A DNA stretch of 59,421 bases, filler included, from Jimgerdemannia flammicorona (lineage: Eukaryota), in NCBI GenBank assembly GCA_003990765.1. It is 3 parts of 3 records of this genome, joined end to end, with 100 filler letters (N's around TTAATTAATTAA, not from the genome) between each part and the next. Parts side by side here need not be neighbours in the genome. Positions count along the whole stretch, not along the records: positions 39,684 to 59,421 come from RBNJ01001863.1; 2 more parts are not named here. One strand, 5' to 3'. Shown here piece after piece: positions 27,922 through 59,381 of the stretch; positions within the stretch are counted from its first letter, which is position 1; every line of letters begins with the position of its first letter. The notes beneath the pieces were generated by a model. That model was not told the origin of the DNA, did not search any database, and was given only the letters and a program-made list of their open reading frames with translations. The position numbers and the translations under genes were made by a program.

Positions 27922-27923
<2 letters not shown>

Positions 27924-27952
<29 letters not shown>

Positions 27953-34248: not shown

Positions 34249-35097
34249 GTTTACAAAGCGAGAGGGAGTCTGTTTGAGATGGGAGGTGTACGGAAAATAG
34301 TCCTTTGTTTTTATACTAAATCGTGGCGCACTGCTTATAAGTTTGGTCGACGTGTACAAAAGAAGCCATTTCGGCGGTAAGCTACATGACAAATGGGACT
34401 TAGTTATCGAATACAATACACCTTCGATGTATTTCTTATGTGCTAATATCGAAGTTCCTATATCGTCAATCTAGCATATGAGAATGGAGTGCATTGTGGA
34501 GAGTCTAACTCAACGCATTGCATCGCGATTTCATGCCCAATGTAGGTTGATGGACAATTCATATGAAATAAATATAAACTTCGCCTGATTCTGAAGATGA
34601 TTTGCCCGATTATTTTATGGTTTTATTTGTCAAAGTTGTCAAAGCCAATCTCTAGTGCCTCGAATTGAACCAACAAATATAAAGGTTGTGTATATGCACC
34701 GAAAATTTAAGTTGAGGTCCCAGAGCTCCTAACCATCAATCCTATCCAGTAGAATATATCCGAAATTGAAATTTCGTCCATTCGAGATGCTAAGCCTTTG
34801 TTCCTGCCTGGCGCTTATGAGGCAGGGAATTTTGCACAGCGAGGATAATTGATGGATCTCGGTGTCCCAGATTATAGATGGAATGTATAGTGTGATACAT
34901 CTGACAATGAAAATAGGAATAGTTATTGTGCTACATAACATTCAATCAAGCGCACTATTTAATGTGAATATAATAGACATCACAGCATATTTAAGACATC
35001 GGACTACAGCTACAATATATACAACTCAGAAAATTATGAAATAGGTTTTGGTACAAAATAATGATATTTGCAAACTAACTTTTTATGACCTCATCAT

Positions 35098-36424
35098 TCA
35101 GCTTCGACGATCTTTTATCATGTACTTGCATCCTACACGTAAGGGCACGGCTGGGTACACTTTGTCGGGGATATTGCACCAGGCTGTCCCGTAATTGACT
35201 CCATTGATCGAAAGGGCAATTTAGGTGCCATTTTCAATACGTTTACCGTATTTGAGGCATTCGGACTGATTATCAAAATATGCGAATTTTTCTCCAACGA
35301 GCCCAATCATACTGATGCCGTGGGTTTTATGCGATCCAATGGATTCAACAATAATGTCCCATTCGCATACGTCGTTGTGAACCTTTGTCCCGGGGACGGA
35401 AAGCTGTGCTGTCTGTACTGTCTGTACTGTCTGTGGCGAAACCCCCGATGGAAGCTCCACAACCTGGTCGTCTTCCAAAACGACCACTTGAAAGCCGATT
35501 TTCGATCGATGCCACCGGAGATTAGCATTATGACGCGCCTCTCCGCGGCTTGCAGACGGATGACCCGTAGGGCATACCGTGTTCTTGCAGGCGTGATGGC
35601 AAAACGCCACGTAGTGAGGAGAAGTCTCTGCAAATGTGTCAACTGCCTCCGTGAGGATCTTGAGTCGATGTGGGCAAATTAGCGTGAGGTCAAAGTGCCT
35701 ATCATCGATGTCATGTAGAACAGCACGGCGTTCCGAAGCCGATGGCGCGTCCCCAGACCCAACCGACGACACACAGCAATAGGTCGTGCTCGAGCGTGGA
35801 AAGGGTCGCTGCCTCGGTGAGGAGCAGCTCGAAGGCCTCTTCACAAAGGTCAGTCAGCTCACCGACGGCGAGCCTGTGAGCACGGAAAGGATTGAGGAGA
35901 ACTTCATAAAGGTCCTTGTTGACTTTACTCCACGGGATGACAGCGACAGACTCATTGAGAAGCGATGAGACGACACCAAAATCAGCGAGGTCGTGCGCGC
36001 GTTCCAGCACCATCTTCATGAGCTTGGGGAGGAGGAGAAAGCTTGCTGCGTGGTATATTCCTACCGCAACGGAAACGTTGACAGCGTTGTCGATGGTTTC
36101 GGTGTGAATAAAGCCAAGGACGATGTTGAGCACTGTCGTTGAGGACAACGCGATCAGAGGAACCTTCTCGCATGTTTCCTTACAACATCGCCTTGAGGAC
36201 TGGGCATCTTTAAAGAAATCAGATTAAATTAAATGCCATGAAAAACGATGGAAGCAATTGTGAGAGAGCCGAAATCAGACAAACCTTGAAGCCAATATGG
36301 CACGGCATGCGCCTAGTTCGACGCCGTCAGCGTAGACGATGATCACATCGTAGTAGGTTGGGTCCTTCCAGATGGAAGCGATGTCATCCTTGAGACTAAG
36401 ACCGCTGTTGGATTGCTCGACCAT
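35098..36424 (-). pseudogene. BTB/POZ-SPRY-like gene copy 2, pseudogene with frameshifts and larger deletions
   Basis: Pieces 35711-36148 and 35221-35844 match copy 3, with deletions near 35700 and 35220-35280. Confidence 0.85.
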
Positions 36425-37094
36425 ATTTACAAAAACAAGTGAAATAAAGGGGTCTATTTGAGATGGTTGAGGTGTGGTTTCGGCTGCGGAAAGAATTTCT
36501 TTGTTTTTATAGCGCAGCGTTGATAATGTTGGTCGAATTGTGCAAAAGATGCCATTTGGCGTTAATTATTGAACACAATACACCCTCGATGCCTTTCTTA
36601 TGTCAATCCGGCATATGAAAATGGAGTGCATTATGGAGAGTCCAACTCAACGAATTGCATCACGATGCCGCGCCTCGGTCATAAGCACTGCAGGTTGATG
36701 CGCATTGTTTGTATGGACGATATAAACTCCTTGCTTGATTCTGAAGATCAATTAAATAATAAAAAATTAATTATTTTATTTTTGTTGAAAAAATTGGTCT
36801 CTACTGCAACAACCAAAACCAACGAACATGCCGATGAAGCAAAAGATAATGCGGTGCTGAAAAGCTAAGCACTGGAATGAGCGCTTAGTTTGTACTGTGT
36901 GGAATATGCAATGGAGTTCGAATACAGACTTTTATATCTGGTAACGAAGCAGAAAAAGTTTATTTTTAACATACAATTGCTAACCTACTTAAAATAAATA
37001 TAAAAGACATGACAAATATGAATAGTTACAGCTACAATGTATATAGCTTATGAAAACATTAAGATACAAAATAGAGTGACGACAGCATTCAGCC

Positions 37095-38577
37095 TCAACG
37101 ATCTTTTATCCGATACTTGCTTCCTTGACCTAAGCTCACGGCAGGGTACACCTTATCGAGAAGGTTGCTGCAGGCCGTTCCATAATTGGTTCCATTGATC
37201 GAAATGGCACAGGTATGATCATTTTGGTTTAAATGTAAGGTTATGACATCGCCATTTTGAACACGGTTTCCGTAATCTCTCCAATTTTTTTGATAAAATG
37301 CTTGTTGCCCACCGGTGTAGGAATAGAAACCCCATGAATATAACTGGCCTGACATGTAACCATCAAAATTTGTTAATTCATCTCCAACGAGCCCAATCAT
37401 ACAGAAGCTATCCGATCCAATGGATTCAACGACAACGTCCCATTCGCATAGACCATTGTGAGCCTTCGTCCCGGGGTCGGAAAGCCGTGCTGTCTGTATC
37501 GAAGCCCCCAATGGAAGCTCTGCTACCTTGCCATCTTCCGAAACGACCACATTAGAACCGATTTTCGATCGATCCCACTGGAGATTGACGTTGTGACGCG
37601 CCTCTCCGCGACTTGCGGACGGATGACCTGTAGGGCATACGGTGTTCCTACAGGCGTGATGGCAAAACGCCATATAATGTGGAGAGGTCTCCGCAAACGT
37701 GTCAACTGCCTCCGTGAGGGTCTTGAGTCGATGCGGGCAAACGAGCGTGAGGTCAAAGTGGTTCATCATTTTGAGCAGCAAGGTACGCGACGCGCCGTTT
37801 CCTAGCCGGACCTTGTCGTTGCACCCCGCAACCATATCATTGATGTCATGCAGAACAGCGTGGCGCTCCGAAACCTGCGGCTTGTTATCGTTGCGTCCCC
37901 AGACCCAGTCGACGACGCACAGCAACAGGTCGTGTTCGGGAGTGGAAAGGGTCGCCGCCTCGGTGAGGAGCAGCTCGAGGGCCTCTTCGGAGAGATCGGT
38001 CAGCTCACCTATGGCGAGCTTGTGAGCACGGAAGGGGTTGAGGAGCACATTATAGAGGTCCTTGTTGGTTTCGCTCCACGGGATGGCGGCGACGGCTTCA
38101 TTGAGCAGTGATGAGGCGACACCAAAATCAGCGAGATCATACGCGCGTTCCAGCACCATCTCCATGAGCTTGGGGAGGAGGAGAAAGCTTGCTGCACGGT
38201 ATATTCCTACCGCGATGGAAATGTTGACAGCGTTGTCGATGGTTTCGGTGTGAATAAAGCCCAGGACGATGTTGAGCACCGTGGAGGTGATGTCGTTGAG
38301 GACAACACGATGAGAGGAGCCCTCTCGCATGTTTCCGTACAGCATCGCCTTGAAAACCGGACATCTTTCAAGAGACCAGACGAAATTAATTGTCATGACA
38401 GAACACAACTGTATAAGAGAATCGAAATCGGACAAACCTTGAAGCCAGTACAGCACGGCATGCGCCTAGTTCGACGCCGTCAGCGCAGACGATGGCCACA
38501 TCGTGGTAGGTTGGGTCCTTCCAGATGGATGCGATGTCATCCTTGAGACTAAGACCGCTGTCGGATTGCTCGACCAT
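37095..38577 (-). CDS. BTB/POZ domain protein with C-terminal SPRY/concanavalin A-like domain, 469 aa, two coding exons (38577-38438, 38364-37095)
   Basis: Exon 1 MVEQSD...YHDVAIVCADGVELGACRAVLASR joins via a 73-bp GT...AG intron (38437-38365) to CPVFKAMLYGNMRE, restoring the BTB consensus. The C-terminus WDVVVE...MIGLV...WGFY...GDVITLHLN...INGTNYG...VYPAVSL is SPRY-like. Confidence 0.88.
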
Positions 38578-39583
38578 GTTTACAAAAACGAGGGTTCTGT
38601 TTGGGATGGTAAAGAATTTGTTTTTTATATCCAAATCGTGGCGCAGCGTTGACGCGAGAAGTTCGTTTAGAGAGTTGAGTTCTGGATATATACATATTTT
38701 ATTTCACTTTATCAGCATGTAATACTTTGTAATTGTTGGTTCCATTTGTGGCAATGGTCATCTTAAAACCACATCACATATATGGAATACTTTGCGTCAT
38801 ATGTATGATATGGGTATATACTCAAATGTATGATACAGATATTCAATGTATGATGCCAGTACCTGTCGACCCTTATAGATTTGCCATCCCACACCCAAAT
38901 GCTTGAACGGGGCACGCCAAGTTTCAGGTGTAACGATTGGCGGGATGGTATATGAGGTTGCGGAGAACTTTCGTCGACGACGAGGCGCGGACATTAATAA
39001 CTGCTGATATCTGGGTTGTTCAAATTCCGATGGGGTGATGGCGTCGATTTGCAAGAGATGAAAGACGGACCACTGACCCGCTGAGAAGGAAGATGGTGTG
39101 GAGGGAGACTCAAGGAAGGCTGTGCCGTGTCGGCCAACGTGACAGAAGAACATGGTGGTTGAGGTAGGACGAGGGGCGTCGATTTGTTCGCGTCATCAAA
39201 AAAAAAAAAAAAAAATGACGAGTCCTGTCTGAGTAAAGACGACCGGATAATGAACTTGACGATCAACTATCGCTGAGTCGTATTTATATTATTTACGGGC
39301 TAAATTGTGAAAAAATAAATGCTCGGCATGACAGAAAACAAACCATGACTCAGAAAGTTGATGACCCGCGGGCGGAACCCTATTGCAATTACTATTTTGC
39401 AGGTTCATGCCACGAAGGGCGCCAAAATCAGGTTCTGGCTGGATTTTCCATCTGAGTCATAATTAGGAGAATATTCTAGCTACTAATGATACCGCCAACC
39501 CCTTCGCCGACGAAGTCCCACACGATATTGCTAGATCGTTCAGAGACGGAGGGCACAAAGCATGGCGTGTGACGGGAAAAAAA

Positions 39584-39683
39584 NNNNNNNNNNNNNNNNN
39601 NNNNNNNNNNNNNNNNNNNNNNNNNNNTTAATTAATTAANNNNNNNNNNNNNNNNNNNNNNNNNNNNNNNNNNNNNNNNNNNN
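39584..39683. other. Artificial contig linker (N44-TTAATTAATTAA-N44)
   Basis: Same 100-bp spacer as 19743-19842. Confidence 0.98.
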
Positions 39684-40329
39684 ATAAATTTCTGATATTA
39701 ATATATTATAATTTCAAATTTCAAATAAATATCTTTAAAATTCATAAAGTTATTAATTTTTAAAAATAGTTAAATATTTTTTTGTCTAATAACTATTTCT
39801 AGTTAGCGTAACTCAAGTTCAGCTATCTATCTATTAATAAGAATATGAGACCAGAATCTACAAAAGAAATTCTGACAGAAGCAAGAGTGGAGATCTTATT
39901 ATTACTATATTTACAACTATAATACTGATAGATTCAAGCTATTTTGAGATCTCTAATATCAAAAATAAGAAGGAGAATATCAATCTTTCAATCTTATAGA
40001 TAAAGAAAAAAGTAAACAGATTATATATAAGAGAGGAATTTAATCTCTTTATTTACCAATATTTAGATAGTAATATTAATTCTTAAAATTACAGCAATAT
40101 GAGACCATAAGAAGTAGATAAGATAGAAAATCTACAAGATAATCAACTTAGAGAAATTAAGCCTTAACTGACAGATTACTCAAACTTACTTATATATTAC
40201 TTAAGAGTTATAGATATAGAACTATATCATCTTTGAGTTATATTACTTAATATATAAATATACACTATTTGGAATAATAAACAATACTCTCTCTTCTACC
40301 TTCTTTATATTCCAACTAAGTTATAATAA

Positions 40330-42200
40330 AGGTTATGAGTCCAACTTAGTAGCTAATAAGAAATATCTCTCAAGACTATATACTACTCTATATCAAAATA
40401 TCAGTATAGATGAACTAAGAAATCAGTATAAGCATAATAAATACAGTTGGTACAGATACCCCCAGAGTGGGTAAAATAGTTACAGTTTTTGTAACAAATA
40501 TAAATATAGTCAAGAAGTCAATCCTAATCTTTGATGATAAGAATTATACTATTTAGATATTTTATATAAGCAATCTCCTAGAAGAATATAGCTTGACAGA
40601 GTATATAAAATCATAGATTTATATTTAAAATTATAATACTATAAATAATTAATAAGTATTATAAGAGATTACATTTAATTATCAAATCAATAAATCAAGC
40701 TTATAATGTATGCTATAGTAGTCTATAATATATAAAAGACTCCAAGAAATTATTATATATAAGTATTCTTATCAAATCAATTTCATCTGAAATCTCAGCT
40801 ATTCAATTTATAAATAAAACCAAGAGAGAGTATCTATAAATATACTGATCATATTGATAATCTAGTGAATCAGGTAAATTCTTTAAGCATATTAACAGAA
40901 TATATCAGTAATAAAGATAATATTCTAAGCCTTATAAGAGATCTCTCTAAGGCATATAATATCATAGTAACAGCTATGTACAAGAATAGAAAGCTTGTAG
41001 ACTACAACTATATAATAATAAGTCTCATTAATAAAGAGATTTATTAAGGAAATGATTATAACAATAATGATAAAAAAGTATTTTATAGATTATATAGATA
41101 AGATAAGAAGTGTTAATAAGATCAAAAATGTAAAATATTTCATAGAAACCATATTACTATTGTAAGTATAGATATATACAGAATAATTACTATTATAAGG
41201 ATAAGGAGAATAATAATAATAAGTATAAAAGTCAGTATTAGTAATATGAAAGTAATTGAAAGAAATGTGATAATAAAGAGCAACATAATGCAAATACTAT
41301 TAAAACTGAAAAAAATTATAGTAGAGACATATTCTATATATAATAATATATATTAAGTATTTGAAGATAATATTATCCATTTTTATATATAAGCCATATA
41401 CGTTTTAGCCAATAAAAAATAATAGTAAATAACTCTATAGAAATATTGTAAAGTTTGCTAGTACTTTCTAAAATATATTATATACTCTAAAGAGAGAAAT
41501 AGTATATAGTTTTAAAATGATAAGTATATTATAATATAGTTGAAATAAGATAATCTTTATATAATCAATAGTATACTAAGTAATACAAAACTCTCTATAT
41601 ATATAGTAACTATATCTAATATATCTAACATATAGTATTAATACTTAAGATATATAGAGAAATGGAGTCTGGAAAGGATAATTAGAACTTGATCTATATA
41701 AAGATTATTAGTAATATATATCAATAATAACTTCTATATAAATTATATTGCAAACTAAATATTCTGATATCTATTTAAGAAATGGATGAAATGTATATAT
41801 AGTATATTTAATTTAATCTATATAGATATATATGGTCTGATGTATACTACTTTCTATAGAGAGAAGAGATATTTTATCATATTTATCAATAACTATATAT
41901 ATAAGATATATGTATATTTCTTATCAGGAAAGTGTAAATTCTTAGAGAAATTCAAAGAGTTCGAAGTCATTATGGTAAATAAAACAGAATATATAATATA
42001 TAATATATGCTCAGATAATAAAAGTAAATATATCCATAATGTATGAGAAAATATGATATATATCATTAGACAACAGTACTATATACACAATAGCAGAATA
42101 GTATAACTGAGTATTTTAATGATATGATTATAGAAATGTTATATATGATGATTAAAATGACTGGACTATTATATTCTTATTAGATTGAAACTATTAATAA
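40330..42200 (+). mobile_element. Very decayed Ty1/Copia element (PBS, gag, integrase)
   Basis: PBS-like AGGTTATGAGTCC at 40330 (cf. copia GGTTATG[A/G]GCCC) and gag-like 40865-41047. The integrase 41786-42046 reads LIYIDIYGLM...RYFIIFINNY...VYFL...KFKEF...SDNKSKY (cf. LIHSDxCGP...YFxxFIDDY...LRSDNGGEY). Boundaries are approximate. Confidence 0.8.
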
Positions 42201-44828
42201 ATAATATCAACTAAGATTATAAGTCAATGAATATGCAATAATTAGTTTACTTGTAGTCATAGGTTAGGTACAAGATATAGAGGTCTTATATTATATTTGT
42301 ATTTCAGTTCTAAACATTTAGTATCAGAGATATTTAGTACCATAGTGATTTAGTACCAAAGAAAAGAATAATTGATATAAATAATGTAGTCTATAGTACT
42401 TGTTAAGACATATACTACTTAGATATATATATCAGTTACTTAACAAAATAGCACTCATTCACTCTTCCACTCATTACCTTTCTTCTTATATACTCTTAGT
42501 TATTAATATTTGTATATTATGCCAATACAATCTCTCTTCTCATGGTCAATAAAAAATCAGCTTACTTTATATCTACACTATACTGATCTCTTCTTTATTA
42601 AGTGAGTTCTATGTTTCCTCTATGAGAGTCCTAATGAAGACACTGATGATGCCAACATTGTAGTATCCTATCTTATGAATATTCAATCTCAAACTATTAA
42701 GGAAGCAGTTCTATCACATACTACTCTATGTATATTTCTATCTATATAGTATCTATGCAGTCTAGCCCAATACTCTCTCTTGTTTTAGATGATATTATGA
42801 ACTGCTTTACTAAATAAAACTACCACCTCAATGACCATTTCAATCTAATTCATCTCAATCAGACTTCTGTCCCTCAACTAATTCACTCAGTACAACCCCC
42901 TCTCATCAATAGTAGTATTACCCTTAATCATACCACTATCTCATTCTCTACTGCTCTATCCACTGCCCCTTCTCCACACATGCCACCAGATTTTGATATC
43001 TTGGCTGGTAAATTACCATCTCTTTCTTTACCAGTTACAGTTATTCAAAATATCAATCTCTCTTTAAAGTATAGACATATCAATCAATATCTTCTAGCTA
43101 TTTTGGTCAATAACTCATTCCAGGTATCAGAAATTAGTTAGTTGCTGGAATACTATTTAACATTGAGTGTCCCTATAAATGAGCACTAATTTGTCAAATC
43201 TCTGAATAAATTGAGCATATATATTATTACTAAGAAAGCTACCTCTCTATTTAAAAATCTCTCAGACATCTCTATCTTTATCTCTAGCCTACTTATATAC
43301 TGTAGCATTATTCATAATACCTATCCAGAACTAACTAAACTTATGCCATTCCTCTCTTATACTATCAACTTTGTCTCTCTGATAGCTACATTACTCTAGT
43401 ATACACTACTTAACTATTATATTGTCTTTCATAATAAATATATTGCTGAAGTCACCCATAATTGTATTTTGGCTATATGGTACTACTGTTGGACTAAATA
43501 TAACCATGATCTATTCATGTCTCTGAGATTTCATCAAAAGCCACTGGTACCTGTCACTACTATAGTCTTGTTTTCTAAATCATTATATTATGTATATTAG
43601 ATGTTTCCCTCAATATATACTATTCACAGCTCTAGACCCTCCAAACTTCTACTGATATACCATAACTACAATAGCTCTCTTTCTGATAGTACTCCAATAT
43701 AGGACTCTAGCTACCACTAGTCAAATATATTTATGCTTATATATGTTCAAAGTGTGGCTTCAACTACACTTAACTAGAGTATCTCAACAACTCTCTAGGA
43801 ACTTACTCTCAACTATGCAATACTCACTAGCAATATCCTTCTACAGCCAGTTCTGAAAACCTGTCTTCATTGTCCTCTCTCTATACTCCTCATTATTGCT
43901 ATCTGTGAAATTCAAGCTTACTTACCTCCACTCTCCTCTGCTCTCTAACTAGCTGTCTGAACAATAGCTCTCACTATATATCCAGACCAGGATCTTGCTC
44001 AAACTGCTATCAATACTATTTCTCAAGACATTCTTATAGACTTAAATAGTACTCAGTACAATCAGATTGGTATTAACCACTAGTCTATACTAAAGCAATC
44101 TTTAAGGACACTATCTGGAAAGTAGTAGCTGGTCATGTCTGTAGCTCTTCCTCAATTCTACCATTCTTCCTATTTCACTCCTTACCTCTAGGCATAATTA
44201 CAAAGAGAAATTCATTATCCAAATGGTAAAATATCTATGATCTCTCCTGGCCCCAACATAGTCTCTCTATTAATACTAATATTAATACAGATATCTATCT
44301 CATATTCTACATATGTTTTGATATGGTCTGGACCTTATCAGAATTTTAGTTAGAGCTGCCTACTTTCTAAAGTAGACCTCACTGATGCTTATCATTATAT
44401 ATATATCCATCTATTAGATTGAGAATTACTTAGATTTGAATAGTTAGGATAGTACTACTTTGACTGCTACCTCCTGTTTGATACCAGCTCTTCTCTATTC
44501 TCATTCAATATCTTTGCTAAGCTGCTCATATAGATTGCTCATCACTAAGGCCTCCAATATTTCTTTCATTATAAGGATGATTTTATTCTTATATCACTAT
44601 TAAATATTCTCTCCCTCATATCCTCTAATTGCTCTCAGTTTCTTCACCTCTGTCACTATCTTGGATAGATAATGTAACTGTATAAAATCATCAGACCATT
44701 GATATATAATATCTTTCTGAGTATCAAACTAGATATAGTTAATATGAAGATATATTCTCTAGCTAGCAAACTCTCTGACATTATAGACAAGCTTTGCCAA
44801 TGGCCATCTCAATATACTTACTCTCAAA
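42200..44828 (+). mobile_element. Decayed DIRS/Ngaro-like (tyrosine-recombinase class) retrotransposon: gag-like region and RT; truncated by Gypsy-4
   Basis: At ~44180-44760: PLGIITK...KW*NIYDLSWP...KVDLTDAY..I.IH..D*ELL.FE*LG*YYFD.YLLF..SSS...F..FA..L.*I...HYKDDF, the DIRS-type RT signature. The recombinase is not in view and the left boundary is approximate. Confidence 0.75.
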
Positions 44829-46124
44829 TATAATATAATATGCCCAGCTCAATAGAGGTAAATTACAAGATTGAGAGTTGATATAGTTTGGCTTAAGCCC
44901 ACAGTTACTTTGTCAAAAAGCAACAAAATGTTCTGTGATTTCTCATTAGTATTTAGTAGTATAATAGTCAATTTGGATATAATAGTTAATTTTCTTATAG
45001 GGATAGTTCTTAGGTATAGCAACAATTTCAGATTTCTTATACAGAATGATCTGATAATTTAGTAGTTTCTTCTTAAGTGATGGGTGATCTCTATATAGTT
45101 TATCAATCTCCAAAAGTATGCAATTTCTGTTATAATGATCTTTATGTGATCATCTTAGTGATACTATTTATACTAATTTGGTATTGAACTCAATTTGGTA
45201 CAGATTCTCCTGAATTGGCAGACTTCTTGAGTATAGTAGATAACTTGGATAACTTGGATAATACAGATTCTTCCTGAATCAGCTCTTCTGGAAAATTACT
45301 CAGATAGTTAACAACTTGATAACTCAGATATTTTGGATAACTTTGATAACTCAGATAATTCAGATATCTTGGGTAACTCAGATGGTGGATTCTTGACAAG
45401 CTATATCAATAATTGACTTCATTTGTATGGGGTTACATTATAGATATACTCTACTGTAAAGTTATTTCAGATAGATGGCTTGTGGTAAGATTCCTATGCA
45501 AGTTCTCTGAAAATAGTGGATTCTTCTCTTCTAGCTTATCTGGTAAGTAAACCAAAATATAACAAACTCTTCTTTATATCAGAAAGTAGACTAGAGTGGA
45601 AAGTAAGCTCACAATCTCCTAGTAAGGGCTTTAGAGTAGGTATTTCTCCTAAATATTGCAATACTTCCTAGATCAATTGGCTTTTCACAGACATATCTCT
45701 TGAAGAGTAGTAGGCAGACTTATCTTTTGCTTTTGAACTTTTCAGACTCTTCCTTATATCAGAAAGCAAACTGGAGTTAAAATGTATTCTTAATTTCAGA
45801 CTGAGGTTTATTCACTCTTATCTCTGAGATATTTTATATAGTTGTGATTACTATCTGGTTACTATATAGCTAATTATAGATAAATACCTATTATAAGTGT
45901 TTCTGAATTATATAGTATTCCTGAACAGATATAGTATACTAGACCAGTATAGTGTCCTGGTTCAGTATAGTATACTGGTTCAGAAATAGATAAATATACT
46001 ATTTCTAGTATCTCTGACCAATTATACAGATTGGTGTAATAAAGCAGTCTTAGTTGCCTAGTGTACTAGATATAATATATAACTAATTTATAATTTTGGT
46101 GGTATACTTCTGCTAGTCATTACA
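44829..46124 (-). repeat. Probable 3' LTR of Gypsy-4; left boundary uncertain
   Basis: Starts TGTAATGACT after a decayed purine tract. It contains ~20-bp tandem repeats (45900-45985) and then the TATA + AATAAA block shared with family I LTRs (45801-45840). The left end is placed where the DIRS RT reading stops. Confidence 0.55.
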
Positions 46125-46164
46125 TCAGTCTCTAATAAAGGATATTCTGTTCTTAGATTATCTT

Positions 46165-46569
46165 TTAGTTATCATTCTAATATATATAAGCATCCTCAGC
46201 ATCAATATCTAAAATCTCATCTTCATTTGCATTCAAGTTACTCTATTCAACAGATTCTTCCTCTTTCTCTGAGAATGGAATTTCAAGATAGTTGATGATA
46301 CTCAGATAGGTAGCAGAATTTATTCCTTATATATCATTCAGAAAGAACTGTACCTGTATCATTGCTGGAGTATTTCATTTATAGATTGTATATAGTCTGT
46401 CTATAGCAATAGTATTTATTTAATTCAGACCAGTGGAGTTTCTAATATAGATCAGGTCTGAAGCTGGAAGGTTTTGTAACTATTCTCTAATTACATAGTA
46501 GACCTGTAGCTAGTAGACTTGTAGTAGGTACCTGGTAAATGTGAGGTTCTTCTGATGGATTTGATTCAT
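46165..46569 (-). pseudogene. Decayed accessory ORF (~135 codons) between integrase and PPT of Gypsy-4
   Basis: ATG at 46569 opens a single frame whose stops are all TAG/TAA/TGA explicable as C-to-T or G-to-A changes. It has an acidic tail and resembles the Gypsy-2 LTR ORF. Confidence 0.5.
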
Positions 46570-49509
46570 TCAAGGGAATTTCTATTGGCTTGGAAGAATT
46601 GTGGTAGGGGAATCTAGAGATACTGGTCAATTGTCTGATTTATAATATAGAGAGACATATATCTTGAGGCAGTTGATATGTACTAGTGTTCTCAGAGTTT
46701 ATTTCTCCATACTTCTTAAATAGATATTAGTTTCTCTGATATTGTATATAAGATAAGATCCTTCCTATTTGGGCTCCAATTTGGTAGCAAAGTTTGTTAC
46801 AATTATACTTCTCTAAACTAGTACTTGATCTCTAATCTTAATCTTCTGATTCTTCTGCTTCTAGTTATAGTACCTCTTTTGACTTTCTTGGGCCTTTATA
46901 ATCTGAACTCTGGCTTGATTATGTAACTGTTCTGCCTTCTTGAGAAGATCTCTGAGGTTCTCATGGTCAGTAGTTCTGGCTTTTTTTTAGCAAACATCAT
47001 CTCAAATGACTTTGGTTTAGTAGAGGCAGCAGGGGTGTCCTGAAATTTCCATAGAATCTCAGATAAGCAGAGATCCTAGTTGATAGAATTAACTTAGGTA
47101 AATCCTTTCAAGACAGTCTGATTCATTCATTCTATCATACTGTTGGTCTAAGAGTAGTATGATATAGTTCTTTTGAGATAGCTCTTATAAATTCAGATAT
47201 AACTTATGATTATAATGTTGATGAATTCTGTGCCTTAGTCAGAGATGAGTTCTTCTAGATGTCTATATCTGAGTATGAGCCTATAGAGGAGGCCAATGAT
47301 GGTCAAGACATCTGTAATTTCCATTGAAAAGGCTTCAGACTACTTGGTCAGATATTCTACAAATATTAGGATATATTTATTCCTTTTTGATATAACTAGT
47401 AGAGGTCTAATTACATCTACTCCCTATCTCTTGAAGATATTGTCTAATAGTGTAATTAGTTACAATAGTGCTTGATAGTTCTTCTTCCCTTGATACTTCG
47501 GGCAGGTATTATATTTCTTGAATATGTCCTGAACTTGTATTCTGAGTTTGGGCCAATATTAGTATATTATATGTAGCTTTTCTTCTACATTTACCTGTTC
47601 TCGGTAAGCCTCCTAGTGTTCTTTTCAGATGAGATCTTCTTGTGCTTTAATAGTCAAAAGAGCCTCCTTTAGAGTGCAGTTTATTGGTATATCTTTTTTA
47701 TAATTCATTGGAGTTAGCAGGAAAGTACATCAATATTATTGTGAGATTTTCCTACTTTGTAGATAATGATGATATTGTAATCTTGAAGAATAAGAAACTA
47801 GTAGACCAGGATTCCAATAGGTTCCTTATGGTTAAATAGTTATTTGAGAGTAGTATGGTCAGTTATCAGAGTGAACTTTTTCTAATAAGATAATGTTTGA
47901 ACAGAGTAACTGCCCATATAACTGTAAGGCATTTCAGTTGGTTGCTACTATAGTTGGTTTGCTGCTGATTGGTTGCTTAACTTATATAAGCTATTATATA
48001 GTACTGTTGATCAGATCCTTCTTAGGCTAGAACTGCTCTGAGGCCATCTTTGAAGATATCTGTATATAAGATGAATGGCTTCTGTAGATTGGGCCAGATC
48101 AGGATTTGTACTGTAATTATGCAGTGCTTGAGTTTCTTGAAGGCTTTCTCTTATAATTCTGTCTATTTATAAGGTACTTCTTTCTTGTAAAGGATTTGGA
48201 TTAGAGTAGTAATTTGGACAAAGTTCTTGATAAATCTTCTATAATAGAATATCAATATTAGGAATAATAATGTTTTCTTCAGAGTCTTAGATACTGGCCA
48301 ATTGTTGATCTTCTCAGTTTTCTTAGGGTCTGTATGGATTCATTCTTACAAAACTATAAATCTAAGAAATTCAAGTTTCCATTTCCCAAAGTAGCATTTT
48401 TTGACATTAAGTCTCAGATAATTCTTATAAGTAAGCTTGAAGAATTCTTCTAGATAGTATAGGTATTCTTCAAAATTTGCTGAGTATATATTGATATCAT
48501 CTATATACACAATCAGACAGTAGTGGATTAATGGGCTATAGACTGAGTTCATCATTCTTTAGAAGGTGGGAGATGTATTGCAAAGTCCAAAGAGCATTAG
48601 AGATATTTGAACAATTTTTCTAGAGCAAGAATAACTGTCTTTTAAATATCCATAGGGTCTATGAAGATCTCATGGAATCCTGTGAAATGGTCTATACTGC
48701 TGAAGTATCTGGTATCTTGTAACTGATCTAAGAGATTATCAATTCTGGGCAATGAATAGGTATCTTTTTCAGTGACTGAATTGAGTTACTGTAGTCTATG
48801 TAGAGACTTCATCTTTCTTTCTTTGGTATAATAAGTATAGGGCTGGCCCAGGAGCTGGTAGAGGGTTGGATGACTCTATTGTCTAAAAGTTCCTAAATGT
48901 GTTTCTTTTTTAATATTTTTAGATGATGGAGTAATCTATAGAATTTCTGCCAGATAGATGTTATATTTCCTATATTTACACTATGGTGGTATGATGGGTG
49001 GTATGGCAGGTTGCCATAAAAGTAGTGAAGATAGCTTGATATTTATGAAGAAGTTCTACTAGTTATTGCTATTGCTGAGGTGTCAATTCCTCTGGAAGGC
49101 TTTACTGTCTCCTAGTTCACAGAGGGGCCTTTTCTTTCTTCTGAGACCTTTTGCTATTTTTCAATAGGTTTATCTCACAGACCTCTCTGTGGGTTTGATT
49201 GAGGAAGGGCACTTGATGTCCTATGATGATTTCTTTTGACAAGATGATGCTTTCTTAGCTCTGGTTGGTTGGTTGAGAATGTATGAGATTCATCTTATCA
49301 GGAAATGTATATCTCTTAATTTTTAGGTTCAGAATATCTTTATTAGATTCGAAGAAGAGGTTTTGGGAGTTGGTTAGTATAAAGATTTCAAAGATGGTCT
49401 GCTCTCTAGGTTCCAGAATGAGATTCTTATACAATTTAACTAGGTAGTGATATACTTACTAGAGGGCATCCTTCTTAAGGTGGTTGACCTAGAGAAGATT
49501 TACTTTCTT

Positions 49510-49900
49510 CTTGCCTGAGCTTCCAAATCCTTCAGCTTATCTTATTCCTTTGATCAGTTTGGAAACTTCTTATAATTGAGGGGGTCTTGACCTTCATGAA
49601 GACTGCTTGAGCAATCTTCTAACATCTAAGAATTCAGTAATATTCTGTACTACTGTTATGCAAGATCTTGATTTCAACCCTATACTCCAGGTCTATGGTT
49701 CCTTCTCCTTGTCTGGTAAGTCCAGATCTTGAGGTCAGCTGAATGTAAGTTCCTTTGGATGGCTATATGACTAGTCTGGGGCTGAATACTGATATTCTTC
49801 CAGACTTGATGAGTTCATTGTCCAGACTATAGAGGTCATATCCTATATCTTCTTGGTGAGCTTTGGTCATAGGTTGGGCTTTGAAATATAGTAAGATATA
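49510..49900 (-). pseudogene. dut: Gypsy-4 dUTPase domain
   Basis: IGYDLYS, IQLTSRSGL, GTIDLEYRVEIKI, IAQAVF and R*AEGFGSSG. Confidence 0.85.
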
Positions 49901-52900
49901 CTGGGCAATATCTTTGCTGAGTTCAGACTATCTTTGGGCTGAAGCTCAACTGGTAAGATATCTCTAGGCTCTGATATTGAGGTATAGCCATCTGGCTCCA
50001 GTAGAGGAATCTCAGAGATAGTTGATTTCTCATTTTCCTATAGGGTTTAGGGCTTCTATGAAGTTGGTGGCATCTTCTACCCATCCTCAGTAAGTTGTAT
50101 GTCTGATGAGGGCTAGGATATCTTCTCCTAAATTATAGATCTTGAGGGTCTTCTTCCTGGTTTCTTAGTCTGACTTTTTCAGTCCTGAGTTCTATTATCT
50201 CCTCTCTTTAGAGTGTAGACTATAAGAGGAGAATCTTCTGGTGGCTGCAGTCTCAGCAGTCTGAGTGTCTTCTATGATTGCAATATCCTATTGTTTGAAA
50301 ATACATTTCCTGGTTATTGATTTTATGTTATCTTGGGAATTAGTATCCATCTTGGTCCTAGGTTGAGAAAAGGGTAGCCAAGGGATATACTTCTATTATG
50401 GTAAAGAGATCTTGTCCTCTGGTTTAGCTTTGTAATTTGGTAGTAACTTTCTGGAAGATAGTTAACTATACAATTATAGTTAGAAGTTCTGGTCTTTGGG
50501 GTTTCTGTCTTTCTTGTTGATCCAGTAGATAGCACTGATAGAAGTAGTCTTAGAGAGAGTAGAAGATCATTTGATATAGACATCTTTCTAGCTAAAAGGC
50601 TCTCTTCTAATATATTTCTAGTTTTGGAATAATGATAACTATACTTGGTCCTTCTTCAATATTCCAGGTATCATTGTTTTCTAATAGGATCCAGTGAGGG
50701 TCATCCTAGGAAATTAGTTTGGAGACCTCATCTTCTTTGGGTACTTCTTGTTCAGAAACCTCCTGTTCAGAGGTTTCTTCTTCCTCAGATGATTCTAGAT
50801 CTCAGATATTTCTTTTTCTTTCTGCTTCACTTAGGATAGAATGTGTCAGGCGAATTCCTTATACCAATGATGTTTGAGGAGTGCTCAGGGCACTTATGTC
50901 TTTTGAGACAGGTAGGGCATCCTTTGATCTATCCTGCAATGACTCCAATTGTAATAGAGATAGTATTCCTAGCCAATATATTGTCTTCTGGTCTGTCATC
51001 TACTAGGCTGATTCAGAGATTGGACCTGAGATCATTCCTATCTTCAGATTCTGATACCTTATTTATGGTAGACTCTTCACTACTAGCATGTTCTTTCTAG
51101 ATAGTAATCTGCTTCTTTTTCATTGATTACTTATAGCTAGTCATCTTAACTCTGTACTTCTTGCCTCTGTAGTGTAATTTGAGTACTTTTTGACTGATAT
51201 TAACAACTGTATTCATTTCCTTCATCCAGTTGGTATCAGGAATTATATCATAGATGACAGCTTTAGTGACAATAACTTTTGAGATAGAAAACTGAATATT
51301 TCTCAGGAAGATAGAAATGTTTTATACTTCTCCAAGGGGTTGGGTTTAGGCTCCATCTGCTACTATGATGCTGAGGTTGGATGGTCTATCAATGGGCTAT
51401 AATAGGGTGTCCAGAAATTATTTAGCAATGATACAGATAGTTGCTCCTATATTATTGAGGGTTTTTATGTTTTGTCTATCAATATCTCTATATAGATAGG
51501 TACTGATATATCTTTCTGTAACTTGAATAGAGATGGGAGCTAATTCTTACTGTAGGATTGGGACTTGGCCAGCACTAGACCTAGTAGCTCTCAGCAGTTT
51601 ATTTTGGACTCCAGCTGGTATCAGTTGCAAGAATTGCAGGAGAGAGACTTCTATCTTGGCTTCTTGAATCTTTTACCAGGCTTCATTGTAGATATCTCTA
51701 GGTATAGTCTTTGGGGTATATTTCTTCTTAGGCTTTGGAGTGGCAGATTCTCATTCTTCTTGCTATTTCTTCATTCTCTGGAGGTAATTCATTTATTTTA
51801 GGAACAAAAGGTAAGGGAGATCAGAGAGGTATTTCTACTTACTTCTCTTCATATTCTTCATCTTCTTCTTGAAGTCTTCTGCTGGTATTCCTGGATGGTC
51901 TTTCTATAGATCCTGCCTTTTCTCTATAGGATAGACTGTCTTTCTGTTAATGATCTTGGCTAGATATAAGCACAAGTCACTGTAGTCTTTATTGTTACTT
52001 TCTTCTTCAACTTCTTCAACAGGATGGGCTTCAGTCTTTTTGTACTGAGTTTTGTTCTTTCAATTTGATCATTCTGAGTCTTTTCAGTCACTTCTTTTGT
52101 TGTTACATTCAGTGATATAGTGTCCAAATTGTCCACAGTAGAAGCACTGGACTTAGGCTCTGTCTCAGACAGAGTATCTTCTTTCTTCTTGCTGGTAACT
52201 CCTATTATCTCTAAATAGATAACCTTGGTTCCTTTGTAGTATATACCCTCTGTTGTCTTGTGGGTAGCTTTGGATTTTGCATATAGTGAGTTTTTTTTGA
52301 TTTATCCAACCAATCAATCCAACTTGGAACTGAGGTCTTAAATTTTGTTCCTATTCTTCTATTCTTTTGCTGGTTTTCTTTTTTTGGAACTTTCCTATCC
52401 TTGGAGAAGTCCTTATAGAGCCTTGACTAAGATATCCTCCTTGTCATCCGTTTTGTCATAGTCACTTCAGGTGGTTTCTTATCTGATATCAAAAAAACCT
52501 CAAGCTATATCTACTTGTTCTTCAGATCTTCTAATGCCTAGAGTATTGATATACTGAGCAATATTTGGGAGTATCTCATTCATAAAGGTCATTAGACCTA
52601 TAATGTCTTAGTTGGTAACATTGAATCTAATAGTATGCATTGTCTTTGGAATTCTTATAAAGAATGCTCTGAGTGATTCTCTAAGATTTATCTTCATTTC
52701 CATAATGGATTCTTGAGCCTTATAGTGGGTCTCATTTTCTGATTACTTCTTAATAAGCCAGTGGGTCATAAATTCATACTCTGCTAGCCAGATTGATACT
52801 ACATTGATGGCTGCTCCAAAGTCTGAGTTTATATTATTCTTTATTGAGATGAAAATTCCTTTGACTGGCTCTCTGAGTTGGGCTTTGTAGATGATAACTT

Positions 52901-53623
52901 TTCTTTCAAGAGAGAGGTTTAGGAGGGCTGCAATTCCTTTAATTCCATTAAAGAATTCTCTTGAGTCTTCTTCTGGATATCCTGTAAAGATTGATAATGA
53001 AGTGACCATTTCATTATTACTGTCTTCTTATTCTAGTTCTGGTTTCAGTACTGATACTGCCTCTGATTCTGATTCTGATTTACTTTCTGAATTATTACTA
53101 AAGTTTGGGGTACTTGGGTATCCTGAAAATGAGGTTATAGATCTTAGACAAGATGCAATAGATCTGGGTATTCATGAAGTAGCTATTTCTTAGTCTTCTT
53201 GTCCTGTGATAACTGGTGAAAGAGATTCAATAAGCAAAGTTAGTGGGTCTCCTATAGGAAGTCAGGCTTGTGTAATGAGATCTTCTAGTTCTTTGTATAA
53301 TCTAGTTGATCTAGAGAAAGTCTGTTAGTATTGACTGTGGATTTTGTGCTGTGCTGGCTTTCTGTTGACATCCTTCCAATACTGGATAGTTGGTATGTCT
53401 TGAAGTAATGACTTCTCTTCCAGTTCCAATACTGGTAATAACTACTTCTCTAGTAGTGGCAGAGATTGGTATTGTATCAAATATATCCAGTTTGACTGTA
53501 GGTTCTTATGAGCTGAAAGGTTACATAGATTTTGAAATCTTCACCTTTCACCAGTAACATTCAGGTGACACAAGACTCAGACAATACTTTCAACAATGTT
53601 TTTGGTGAATGGCGACTAGCAAC

Positions 53624-55662
53624 ATGGAGAGCAATGAACATACAGGTATGCATACTAGATTGGGTGGACCTAGGGCCTTCAACTGGCAGCAGGTGGGGAG
53701 GGGTTATGTCCTGGGGATGGGGGCCTTCAGAGGGCTGAAGAATGGTGAGGGCTCTGGAGGGGGACCAGTGTCCAGTGGCAATAGGGGAAGGTCTAGTCTC
53801 TCGAGTTTCGCCAACAAAGTTAAGGTGAGTGGGTGGCCAGCTGGTACTAGGGCTGGTGCTGCTGAGGGGAAGGGCAAGGCGAGCCTTGGGAGGGGGAGAG
53901 GTGCTCCAGCTGTGAGTGCAGGCATAGGGGCTGGAGGTGCTGTGGCTGGGGGGATGACTGTTGATAGGGGTGTAATGGGGAATCAGGAAAAAAAAAGAGA
54001 TGTGATGGCTGATGGCCAGGTGGGGCAGGGGTTCCCAATGTGGAAGGGGGACCTGGCGGATTGTATAATGGGGCTGGTGGTGGCTCCATTGCTCAAGAAG
54101 TCAATCTCGGAGTTTGTGGTGACCTTGTGCTTCTGGGGCTTAGTGGTGATGGTGAGGATGGTTCTAGGGCTTGTTTCGAAGTAGGTGGCTGGGGTGGCCT
54201 CAGTGAAGTTCTTGAAGGGTCTGGAGGGGGTTGAGGTGGGCTTTGAGGAGGCAGGCCCACTGGATGAGGCACTGAAGACTGGAGTCGTGATTGGGGAGGT
54301 GGTGGTCCCCATGGTATGGTGCTTGCAATGGGACCCTAGGGTGGTGCAGCTTCTAGTGAAGGGGGTGCCTATGGTGACTAAGGAGGAGACTAGGAAGAGG
54401 GTAGAGGAGGTGATGATTGAGTATGGTGATGTGGTGGACATTGGCTTTCAGGTGTGGGAGGGGACAATGATCAGGATGGGTGATATTGATGTCAGGGTTA
54501 GGCTGGCAGGCAAGGAGGCCATGGGGAAGGCAAGTGACTGGCCCTCTGTGCTGATGTGGGGGGTGTTCATCTGCAAGGTGTTGAGGGTGAAAGGGAGTGA
54601 GGAGGAGGAGGAGGAGGAGGAGGACTTGTTGGAGGTGCTGAAGGAGATGAGTGGAGCTGTGGAGAGGAGGGCAAAGGCCTGGAAGAGGTATGAGGAGTCG
54701 ATACATCTGGAGGTTGTGGAGGAGAGGCATATCCACATGGACAAGGGGCAGTGGGAGTGGGCACAAGGGCGCAGGAGGCAGAGGGAGCTGCTGGCGAGTA
54801 TGACAGTCAAGGTGGAGAAGAAGGCTGTTGGGGCCATAGTGTCTGGGGGTATCGAAGCCAGTGTCTGGGCTGGTAAAAGGGTAGGGGAGGTAGAGGTGGG
54901 CAAGGAAGGAGATGGGAAGGTGCTGAGCAAGAACCCTTTTACAGATGGCACCTTTGAGGTCTGAGAGCTGGAATTGGACTCCACCCCCCCCCCCCTCTGA
55001 TCAGGAGGGGCCCAGCTGCGAAGAGATGGAAGACAGAGAATGTGCTGATGCAGGGGGCCCAGCGAGTGCATTTTGGGGTCCCTGACGTGGCAAAAGGGGG
55101 CCTGGTGGTGGCAGCTGGTGAGGATGAGCTGGTGGATGTCTCTGAGGAGGAGTGGGATGAGGCTGCCAGTGTGGGTGCTGACACCACAATGTTGGATGCA
55201 GGACAGCCAGGGACCCCGGGGGGGAAGTAGGTAGGAAACCTGCTGTGGATGAGCAAGGTGATGGATAACCTTATAGCTGATACACTGGTAGAGGTGGACC
55301 TGCAGGTTATGCCTGAGGAGCACTGGGAGCGGATTCTGCATGGTGAGGGAGTGGTGGAGGCATTGAAGGGGGAGATTCTTGTGATCCTCTTAAAGGAGGA
55401 GGGTTATGAGGTCGATGAGGTGAGGAAGGCAGAGCTGGTGGTGGCTGCAGGTGAGCAGGCAATATATTGCTGGGCTGAGCAGCATGGTTTGCAGCTCTGG
55501 AGAGAGACCTGTTTGGAGTATCAAGAGGAATTTGAGGAGAGGGAAGATGAGGTGATGGTAGAACTTCTGGGAGGGTTGGAGGCACAGGAGGCTGGGGAAA
55601 AGGAACTAGCTGCTGAATGGGAATTGGACTTGGTGCAGAAGGAGCTGAATGTGGACTTGTAG
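53624..55662 (+). pseudogene. LINE-C ORF1 (in-frame stops)
   Basis: Pieces 53609-54184, 54185-54964, 55042-55230 and 55249-55662. Confidence 0.85.
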
Positions 55663-55692
55663 AGAATGGGATCACTTTTAACATTATTCCTT

Positions 55693-58600
55693 ATGAACAG
55701 TACAACTAACATTTTCTCTTTGAAAGTGAATGGGTTGAGGGGTTCTGGACAGTGTAAGAACATTTTTACTTGGCTCAAGAGTTTGGAGGCTGATCTCTTT
55801 TTACTACAGGATGTTCGGTGTGAGGATGAGGATGATTGGGTGATGTGGACTAAGGAATGGGGTGGGGCTACTGCTTGGTTTCAAAAAGTGGTGATTCTGG
55901 TGAGGAAGGGTAGAGGTGACTTGGAGGGAATCAGGAGCTGGGGTGACTACTTGGTCTGGGGAGATTGGCAGCAGCCAGGGTGGGAGTTGGTGAGGGTTGG
56001 CTCTTGCTACTGCCCTGTGGTTAGGGGTGAGAGGATTGCTTGGATTGAGGAGCTGCTGGAGGAGGGTATTCTCTTGGAGGAAGGGGCCGATGTGATTGGG
56101 GGGGACTTTAATATGGTTCAGGATCAGTGTCTGGATCACACTGATGGTGGGAGGAGTGCTGGAGGGAGGAGTGGTGGCCTGGATGCATGGGAGGAGGTGG
56201 AGAGGCTGAGCTCCTTAGGGGATATGGGCAGAACATGATGGGGCAACTCCAGGGTGTACACACATTGGGTGAATGGCTTGGGTACAAGAATTGACTGGAT
56301 TTTGATGGCGGAATGCTGGGGAGCAGATATCTGGAGGGTATTGGAGGTGGAATGGTGCCCATGGTCTGATCACTGGGGACTGTTGGGACAGGGGCAGTTT
56401 GGGGGGAGTGGAGATGGACCTGGACATTGGTGCCTCAACACCTCCCTGCTGGCTGAGAAGGAGTTGTGGGATTCATAGGTAGAGGACATTCAGGCAAAAG
56501 TTTCTTGCTGGAGGTGTGAGGGTTTGTCAGTGGGCATCCAGTGGATGAGATTGAAAGAGGCTGTGAGGGTCTATTGGGGCGAGGCTGGGAGAGAAGCTGG
56601 GAGACAGAGGAGGAAGCATACAAGATGCACTTTTGGCAGGCTGAGGAGATTGCAAATGGATTGGGCAAGGTTGCTTACTTCTAATGGGGTAGAGGATTGG
56701 AGGTTAGTATGGATTAAATTGGAGATATTGGAACTACAACAGGTGCTGAGAGAAGAGAAGGAGGTGCATATGTGCAGTATGGCTGCTAGGCTCTGATGGC
56801 AGGGGCTTGAGGAGGGTGAGTGGCCTACTAGATATTTATCCCATCTGCTCAAAGCTAGGAGGGTGAGGCATCAGTGGGATGGAGACCTCGATGCCGATGG
56901 AGATATGGTACATGGCATGCAACAGATCCTAGGGGTTTTGAAAGAGAGATGGCAGAGTTTGTGGAGTGAGGATGAAGGGGGTACTGATGAGGTGGCTATT
57001 GATGATGCATTAGGGGAATGGAGGCCGCCACAAGTGGCTGGACTGGATGACTTGGCCTTACCGGTGTGAGGTGAGGAGGTCCAGAGTGTCCTTATAGCAA
57101 CTAAAACTGGAACAGCACCAGGAGAGGAAGGACTACCATGGGACTTCTGGAAGAAGTGGTCAAGGTCTCCGGCATTCTGGGGGAGATGACTGCTCTCTGT
57201 AATCATATTCTTCAGCATGGTGAGTGGATTGGAGAGCAGGATCTTGGGCTGGTTGCTTTATTGTACAAAGACAAGGGGGGGAGAGAAGACTGGAAGAACT
57301 GGCGACCGATCATGCTTTTGGACATGGACAGGAAGATGGTAACTAAGGTGGTTGTTGCAAGGCTGCAGAAGGTTGCCCAACAGGTGTTGGGGGAGGAGAG
57401 CAGGGCTTTGTTGGAGGTAGGCTCATAAGAGATGGGACTGCTTGGGTGCATGGTATCATTGAAGGGGCCTGGGCTTGCAGCCTGGATGGAAGGTTGGTCT
57501 TTTTGGACCAGGATAAGGCCTATGACCGGGTCCAGCGGGTTTGGTTGGGAAAGGTGTTGGATTGTATTGGTGTTTCCCCTGGATTTCAGGCTTCAATGGT
57601 GAATCTGCTTGAGGGCAGTTGGGCGGTGCTGATGTGTAATAGTCACTGGGGTCAGGTGTTTACCTTGCGAAGAGGGGTTCCTCAGGGGGACTCCTTGTCC
57701 CCTATTCTTTATGCTCTCTCATTGGAACCACTTATGGATAGAATTCGCCAGAAGGTGGTGGGGCTCTCTATCTATGGCATAGTGTGGAAGGTGGGGGCCT
57801 TTGCAGATGACATGGTGATTGGCCTTGGGTCTGTGGCAGATGTCAAGGCACTTAAGGAGATGGTGGAATGGTATGAGGTACACTCTGGGGCAAAGCTCAA
57901 CTGGCACAAGTGTGAGACCATGGTGCTAGGAAATGGACTGATGGGTGGGGACATCATTGGAACAATTGTCCCTATGGGTGAGGTGGTATGGTATCTGGGC
58001 ATCTTCCTCTCTGTATATGGTTCTGTCTTGCCATGAGTGTAGTGGGAGAGCAAGGTGACTACTTGGAGGGAGGCCCTTCGAGGTTGGGGAGGATGCCATA
58101 TTTCTCTAGCAGGGCAGGTTTCAATTCTGAATGCATACTGGTTCCTCAAGCTGTGGTATGTAGCATACAACCTCGACTTCCTGGCTTGAGTGGTGAAGAG
58201 GCTGACGAAGATGGCTAGGGATTGGATTTGGGCAGGGAGGAGGTCCCAGATCAGTTGGGATACTCTTGCAACACCAGTGAATGGGGGAGGTCTTGGCCTT
58301 GTAGATTTCCCTAGGAGGTTGCACTGCTTGCGAGCCTGGTGGTTGATGAGAGTGGCTGAACTACAGGGAGGGGGTTGGGTGCCTCTGATGTAGAAGATGT
58401 AGAAGATGAGAACCTCCCCCTGAGGGTCCTCAGGAGATCTACTCTCTTTGGTAGGGCTCAATGGAATTCGACGGCTGCGATTTAGGGGCTTTTGGTAGGG
58501 AGTGGTAGATAGAGCACACAGAATTGGTCTGCACTGGTGGGGCAATGAGGGGGAGGTGTTGTGGGGTCCTCATATGTGGAGATGGGATAGCCTGCTTCTG

Positions 58601-59381
58601 GGGGGTACTCCACTTATTGCTTTTGATATTGGGAATGGAGTGGAGTGTCAGCAGGGTCTTGGCCAGGACCTTTGGCCAGGCAGCTGGCAGGCAGTTGGGA
58701 TCGGCGAGGAGTGAGACTGGGCAGGTATTTGGTCTTGGAGTGCTGAGGTGTGGTGGTGGCTTCCTCCCAAGTTCTGGGTGGTGTGGTGGCACCTGTTGCA
58801 GAGGAACATCATGCTGAATTTCCACACTGGGCATCCGGTGGAGGGTAGTTGTTTCGACTGTAAGGAGTGTTACAACGTTGGGCAAGCTGGGGGTTTGGTG
58901 CAGACACCAGAACATTGGCTGGGAGAGTGTGAGGTTTTGGGGGATTTTTGGGTTGAAATAGGGAATAGGCTGAGTATAGAGCACAGGACAGCAGGTGATG
59001 GAGATTTCTGGGGGGTCTTGAGATCTCAGCTAGTGGGGGGGGTGGGGGATTGTTGGCTGACTATTGGGTGGGTGTTGGCAGTTTGGATGGGTCTAGCAGA
59101 ACAATGGCTTTTTGTGTTTGAGGAGGGGTGGCAGATGAGCCTGTAGGAGAAGGTTGTAAGGTGGAAGGAGCTATTGGGGGATCTGTTGACTGGATGGTGG
59201 GTAGGTTGGGGTCCTTCCAGGGGGTGGTGGCAGGGTTTGGTGGTAAGGATATGTAAACAGAGTGGTGGGAGGGTGGGAGTTGTAATTAATAGAGTAGTGT
59301 TTCATCGAGTAGAGGTAGGGGGGAGGGGCCCCCCTAGGGGGATTGGATAGGGGGTGGGCTCACTGTATTTATATAGGATAG
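55693..59381 (+). pseudogene. LINE-C ORF2 (APE endonuclease, RT, CxxC...HxxxxC), decayed
   Basis: Pieces 55666-56238, 56254-56478, 57138-57428, 57446-58036, 58190-58393 and 58748-59146. The last frame continues to TAG at 59379-59381. Confidence 0.9.

Follow-up and report, generated by a model that had tools for sequence, protein, structure and literature searches.

The locus raises the question of whether a decayed frame lying after the integrase of one Ty3/Gypsy family and a frame lying inside the LTR of another descend from the same accessory gene and, if they do, how that gene came to occupy two positions. The stretch of DNA analysed (the window, 59,421 nucleotides from Jimgerdemannia flammicorona, filler included) consists of three contigs split by linkers, so that adjacency across a linker carries no meaning. 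It is rich in LINEs and in AT-rich, CpG-depleted LTR elements, and the features used here are collected in Table 1. The element hosting the post-integrase frame (family B, "Gypsy-4") is of Ty3/Gypsy type, since the PR-RT-RH-IN order, a GPY/F integrase end, LTRs, a PBS and a polypurine tract (PPT) are all present. The 5' end of the window copy has been severed by a LINE. The D-type element has had its integrase end cut, and its post-integrase region is therefore absent from the window. Three tandem copies of about 2.15 kb of a host-like gene were observed on the minus strand at 32253-38645; CpG is not depleted in them, and the copy at 37095-38465 contains BTB and SPRY domains (Pfam). The stretch at 40000-42800 is degenerate and extremely AT-rich (19-24% GC), with no long frame.

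Table 1. Features of the window, in window coordinates.
Feature	Position	Strand	Remarks
N-TTAATTAATTAA-N linkers	19743-19842, 39584-39683		Window made of three separate contigs
Family B element, decayed Gypsy	44828-53542	-	
Decayed gag-pol body, family B	46627-53542	-	dUTPase near 49730, RT-RH, IN
Integrase C-terminal GPY/F module and stop, family B	46627-46800	-	
Third ORF, family B ("Gypsy-4"), decayed	46165-46643	-	Helical core and acidic tail
Decayed polypurine tract, family B	about 46125-46136	-	About 30 nt past the ORF stop
3' LTR, family B	44828-46124	-	TATA-like and AATAAA core at about 45841-45807
5' LTR, family A element	9750-11311	+	Decayed ORF 10009-10811; PBS next
Family A integrase-PPT spacer	18103-18482	+	No detectable core domain
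3' LTR, family A element	18483-19742	+	Decayed ORF 18735-19552; reaches contig end
Family A solo LTR, nested in another A copy	14882-16371	-	
Family A LTR-borne ORF	15324-16127	-	262-aa type; the "LTR ORF" of the initial annotation
Family D-type element	25600-32008	-	RT groups with D; split and cut by LINE insertions
GC-rich, strongly C-skewed LINE copies	33-5348, 19844-25590, 27981-29264, 53543-59276		Inside Gypsy elements, truncating their ends

The initial annotation described a decayed frame between integrase and PPT at 46165-46569 of the minus strand. This frame reads as quoted there, with seven internal stops and an acidic tail, and is flanked by the integrase stop (46629-46627) on one side and by the decayed PPT (about 46136-46125) on the other, with the LTR from 46124. 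The frame was correct but its start was not. Alignment to better-kept copies placed the true start at about 46643, overlapping the integrase end, with the integrase stop 14 nt past the position of the ORF start. In the same alignment the ATG is missing from the window copy, which has also undergone a 33-nt deletion and a 1-nt frameshift near 46565; the methionine at 46569 is accordingly a product of decay. All seven stops fall within the 46569-46168 part. The family A LTR ORF with which the frame had been compared is likewise present, but one residue quoted as W is a stop. No copy of the ORF was detected in the family B LTR, for which a sister LTR was examined.

Open frames were found among the relatives of Gypsy-4, whose sister subfamilies carry an ORF of 170-171 aa. 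A search of the same genome with a less decayed family B copy returned 1,649 first-look candidates, and 28 of the 150 scored matches were stop-free by hand count. Twenty stretches picked from these 28 were tested for openness, and each of the 20 has an open frame of 169-171 codons from Met to stop. The subfamilies B3 and B4 were recovered using a metagenome relative as query. In most copies the ORF lies on the sense strand between the pol stop and the PPT; of 94 copies, 49 have an ATGA in which the start overlaps the integrase stop, and in 40 the start precedes that stop by 14 nt. Over the family B core, dN/dS was 0.04-0.35 in the 41 computable pairs of 45, compared with 0.54-5.6 for a shifted-frame control on the same DNA, and the window copy itself gave 0.17-0.31. 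Outlying values came from one family C pair (4.49, at a dS of 0.015) and one family F pair (0.71). The family B ORF is a conserved gene under purifying selection.

Additional families were identified from the flanks of retrieved loci and from 40 sampled 10-kb stretches. Family C has a 350-aa ORF within a 2.4-kb LTR, while family D has a 153-aa ORF after the integrase and a 470-bp LTR that holds no ORF. Family E is a chromovirus with a 365-aa ORF within a 2.06-kb LTR. Family F is an old 2-kb repeat with no adjoining pol seen, and its copies are likely solo LTRs. A survey of ORF position relative to the PPT, proposed in the initial annotation, showed two placements of the ORF: it follows the integrase in B and D, and the LTR contains it in A, C and E. 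The core domain was not detected in the A spacer, the C spacer, the B LTR or the D LTR. A second motif past the core, of the I.VFQGP type, is common to A, C and F; B and D end before it. With dUTPase motifs in A, B, C, D and E, open sister copies and purifying selection, the proposal of an old accessory-gene family of dUTPase-Gypsys is supported. In the chromovirus E the dUTPase motif was seen at loci L317, L318 and L246, and the LTR starts of the L317 element are about 6 kb apart. A seventh family, G (888 first-look candidates), is old and heavily decayed and carries the same core 3' of a chromodomain-like stretch (L326:9173-9520 on the plus strand; L337-L351).

The proposed parallel between the family B frame and the family A LTR ORF had been drawn by eye. 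Direct BLASTP of the two window copies aligned only the acidic tails, at 11.5 bits (E 9.4); another run gave 11.2 bits. As this pair is not significant, the by-eye alignment alone is no evidence. In the six-family alignment the second of its blocks (TIAIDRLYTIYK against TRTAKKIHQIFRH) keeps its register, and the first is displaced by three residues. At the level of sequence, the A/B parallel is detectable only through family profiles and intermediates. The profile-profile comparison suggested at the outset gave a partial answer, with B against A no more than suggestive at 11-31% in hhalign (E 0.0005-0.003), above 25 of 25 shuffles, and a stronger link via D. All-against-all, with 25 column shuffles per family pair as control, the hhalign probabilities were 99% for A-C, 92% for A-F, 72% for C-D, 71% for B-D (E 4e-5) and 62% for A-D, followed by C-F at 45%, A-B at 19% (E 0.001), B-E at 11% and D-F at 8%; no shuffle scored as high in any of these pairs. 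D-E was above its shuffles, yet at only 1%. B-C, B-F, A-E, C-E and E-F were within the shuffles, B-C being matched by 2 of 25 and B-F by 21 of 25.

Profiles that left out one or more families were searched against 3.3 million six-frame residues, a reversed copy of which served as control. The profile built without B recovered B at 15.8 bits (iE 0.0011), with 68 B hits above the reversed maximum of 4.9, and the profile lacking both B and E reached B at 10.1 bits (iE 0.07). With the LTR-borne families only (A+C+F), D was found at 34 bits, but B at just 5.6 bits, which is not significant; the B+D+E profile retrieved A at 25.6 bits. These values are to be read with a selection bias in mind, as D and E were first spotted partly through weak hits of the B profile. 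The six cores, each of about 110 aa, align nearly gap-free around Y-x-(I/L)-G-x-x-L and an A-K-R-I-(Y/H)-x-(L/I)-(F/Y) helix, and the string LREARTAK is common to B3 and the family A copy L020. The top ESM Atlas clusters for B and D are of equal length and size. A helical core common to the six families is likely.

The initial annotation had placed the frame in an "env-like" slot, which is apt for its position between pol and the 3' LTR but not for the features of the protein. No transmembrane anchor or signal peptide was found, the maximum 19-residue hydropathy (KD) being 0.07-1.17 in six family representatives. The family B protein has no cysteine, and the B and D proteins are 153-171 aa long. 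Pfam returned no family at cut-off for five proteins (the host BTB/SPRY gene aside) or for 26 core members, and no envelope family at cut-off. The best PHROGs match had an E of 0.0014, for one of the 26 core members. A PDB sequence search with the joint profile gave two hits (E 0.06 and 0.57), one of them a designed coiled coil.

A model of the D core calculated from the joint alignment is all-helical (pLDDT 88.6, pTM 0.77), with helices at residues 2-41, 47-54, 58-71, 75-80, 86-89 and 94-114, and the B-only model has the same helix order at poor confidence (pLDDT 57). The core is predicted to combine a long helix with a helix-turn-helix unit. The helix-turn-helix domains of ParB, SopB and VirB, together with DUF3102 (PF11300), are the top or near-top fold or feature leads for the D model. 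In the structural ranking, DNA-binding domains of SopB, P1 ParB, VirB and Spo0J took places 1, 3, 4, 7 and 30 (Z 4.3-3.4). The SopB match had a Z of 4.3 and an rmsd of 4.7 over 82 aligned residues, which, like every structural Z-score obtained, is below the tool's background for helical proteins (7-14). With the B-only model SopB ranked 22nd (Z 4.2, rmsd 2.7, 52 aligned). Relative to ParB, SopB and VirB, the match stays at a Z of about 4, an rmsd of 4.5-7 Å and 10-17% identity, and the ParB N-terminal domain is missing. A DUF3102 protein was rank 3 in BFVD for the D model (E 0.44), and the Atlas leads include DUF3102 and DUF6192 clusters. Foldseek gave nothing at E<=0.001 with either model, including against the PDB, and the PF11300 profile gave 0 candidates at first look in the same genome. 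These results point weakly, although consistently across three tools, to a ParB/DUF3102-type helix-turn-helix fold. The last 45 aa of the A, B, C and E proteins contain 12-17 D+E, and D has no marked acidic tail (8 D+E, 5 K+R). The pI of the whole B protein is 4.4-4.6, and the low pI of the core is unusual for a simple DNA binder.

To explain the two positions, the initial annotation had proposed that the PPT shifted upstream and so brought the gene into U3. This explanation is not supported for family A. The A and D families have in common the integrase end (76% at the DNA level over 299 nt), the PBS and the PPT, and the similarity extends, in a better-kept A copy, to the 75 nt adjoining the LTR, a stretch that takes in the end of D's ORF (69%, E 0.003). 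Since A keeps both D's PPT and the tail of D's ORF, the PPT of A has not moved. Its slot between integrase and PPT holds a different sequence of about 375 nt without the core. Past the ORF stop, A and C show no purine tract; the median longest run there is 4 and 5 nt, respectively, versus 12 in D.

The RT-RNase H tree contains the pairs A+D (100) and B+C (99) and sets E apart, so that each pair joins one LTR-type and one post-integrase family. One row labelled E (L212) is an A-type RT situated at that locus, which leaves the groupings unaffected. In the ORF tree, A, C and F group together (89/89, unstarred) and a B+C grouping was rejected (p-AU 0.005), while A+D was not (p 0.087), long branches meeting at that point. 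The LTRs of D and C have a 55-nt TATA-AATAAA core in common at 93%, which is undetectable in A. An origin of the A LTR as the ORF plus an old D LTR was considered and rejected, the A LTR having no detectable homology to that of D. The median distance from the ORF stop to the downstream TATA core was 239 nt in A, 287 in D, 306 in B and 394 in C, measurable in 40 of 43, 34 of 36, 65 of 74 and 17 of 19 copies, respectively. This similar spacing leaves room for an ancient shift of the LTR boundary, in either direction. It is from the position of the TATA that the ORF would be assigned to U3.

Taken through family D, these comparisons make it very probable that the B ORF is homologous to the LTR ORF. 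The opposite view, in which the proteins are unrelated and match through amphipathic helices, acidic tails and a similar position, fits the failure of the direct, B-C and B-F comparisons and of the LTR-only profile to reach B. It is nevertheless improbable, as D bridges in both directions above shuffles, B is recovered when left out, and the alignment is collinear with few gaps and has its matches in the core, not in the tail. Given homology, the conflict between the ORF and pol trees indicates that LTR-plus-ORF modules likely moved between lineages. The inside-LTR state may have spread as such a module across pol lineages, or both copies may have been present in an ancestor, with one or the other lost; on balance, a history of either kind is favored over a recent PPT shift in A. 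A single early event, in which a PPT lying 5' of the ORF took over plus-strand priming at the A/C/F root and later exchanges only spread the gene, would agree with the clustering of the LTR-type ORFs of A, C and F and with a stop-TATA distance that is alike inside and outside the LTR. We consider it rather unlikely, given that A's PPT is D's, with D's ORF tail still before it, that no relic purine tract is seen past the stop in A or C, and that the chromovirus E also has an LTR ORF, which may make the LTR state older. The A/D pair offers a natural experiment on the entry of a gene into U3, its two members agreeing in pol end, PBS and PPT and differing in their LTRs and in the position of the ORF.

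As for function, the modeled helical core would bind DNA and, with the acidic tail, would regulate the element's own LTR. Judged on the fold leads and the acidic tails, a DNA-binding LTR regulator, either a transactivator or an anti-silencing factor, is a tentative proposal whose chances fall slightly short of even. To be expressed, the ORF would depend on stop-restart coupling in B and D, and in A, C and E on either an internal promoter or one in U3. A homologous core that instead binds RNA or a host silencing protein, and acts as a regulator of translation or packaging or as an RNAi suppressor, appears unlikely, if well within reason. The stop-start overlap with pol does suggest coupled translation, the Atlas leads for B and D include a phage translation repressor (PF01818) and a closterovirus coat protein, and the strong CpG depletion of the repeats implies heavy silencing pressure. 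Against this, the fold rankings favor ParB-type DNA-binding domains, and the named RNA-binding clusters have low feature counts in the Atlas (122-143 of 256). An env-like membrane protein, for which the position between pol and the 3' LTR would speak, is hardly credible for a small protein with no 19-residue stretch above KD 1.17, no Pfam hit and, in B, no cysteine. Taken as a whole, the reading of the frame as a decayed, selected, non-envelope accessory gene that has its core in common with the LTR ORFs and would encode a DNA-binding LTR regulator seems to us as easily right as wrong. An extension of it, in which a lineage-wide family of transcription regulators with a ParB/DUF3102-type helix-turn-helix of prokaryotic or phage origin would pass as an LTR-plus-gene cassette from one Gypsy lineage to another, including those of chromoviruses, is doubtful. 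If true, a regulator gene would be present in every one of thousands of solo LTRs, and the elements would be "complex" in the manner of foamy viruses.

Extra ORFs in LTR retrotransposons are mostly orphans whose origin and function are unknown. Here, one accessory family is traceable over six or seven lineages in one genome and in two positions, and the open natural copies, the selection data and a confident fold model allow a direct test for a Gypsy-encoded LTR regulator or anti-silencing factor. Accessory genes just before or inside U3 are well known from the 3' end of retroviruses, as in foamy-virus Tas/Bel1, MMTV sag and lentiviral nef, and Tas is a DNA-binding activator with an acidic region. 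The ORFs described here resemble these in gene position by U3; there is no link in sequence or fold, and those genes belong to retroviruses. With regard to a Tas-like promoter, the mapping covered the positions of TATA-like and AATAAA signals in the LTRs of A, B, C and D.

Wide protein searches outside the genome yielded close relatives only, all of them in metagenome records. These numbered 7 among 99 candidates for B, 5 among 202 for A and 16 among 244 with the joint profile. The B-only profile found five relatives among 1.84 billion representatives. No description of the family was found in the literature searched, subscription papers and supplements lying outside its scope. Sense additional ORFs between pol and the 3' LTR, env-like ORFs included, form a known class, aORF-3S, in the sections seen of PMC7264820. 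The B ORF is like these in being sense, located between pol and PPT, kept across copies and without an evident cellular donor; the B and D ORFs differ from the class as portrayed there in being small, in having no transmembrane stretch and in a start that overlaps the integrase stop, and the B ORF further differs in having relatives wholly inside the LTR in other families. In plants, Retand Gypsy elements carry TRP28-domain ORFs in antisense, according to the parts consulted of PMC11963269; the B ORF is sense, and no sequence link was seen. For bdelloid retroelements, excerpts of PMC5408684 describe ORF3s common to diverse lineages and encoding env, a GDSL esterase or a DEDDy exonuclease. These resemble the present case in that one ORF type occurs across distant LTR lineages, several with dUTPase, with modular exchange, whereas the core found here matches no Pfam family. 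Fungal Gypsy elements with a dUTPase between protease and RT have been reported, and a figure legend notes an extra ORF of unknown function in some element (PMC2864245). The dUTPase placement is the same, and the available passages of that paper describe no such family and no LTR-borne ORF.

Further observations concern the spacer, the LTRs and the youngest copies. The family A spacer (in the window and at L334, L005 and L017) prolongs the integrase frame by some 115 codons, up to where the ORF stop of D lies, and its frame has stops at the same few places in most of 18 copies; it is possibly a decayed integrase extension or a separate small ORF. From the TATA-like box to AATAAA there are only 26-27 nt in the A, B, C and D LTRs, which implies that R is very short. 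Many contigs of about 1.1-1.8 kb hold near-identical open copies of B4 (L143-L152) and D (L335-L336), a pattern suggestive of very recent amplification; B3 copies (L112-L140) are more decayed.
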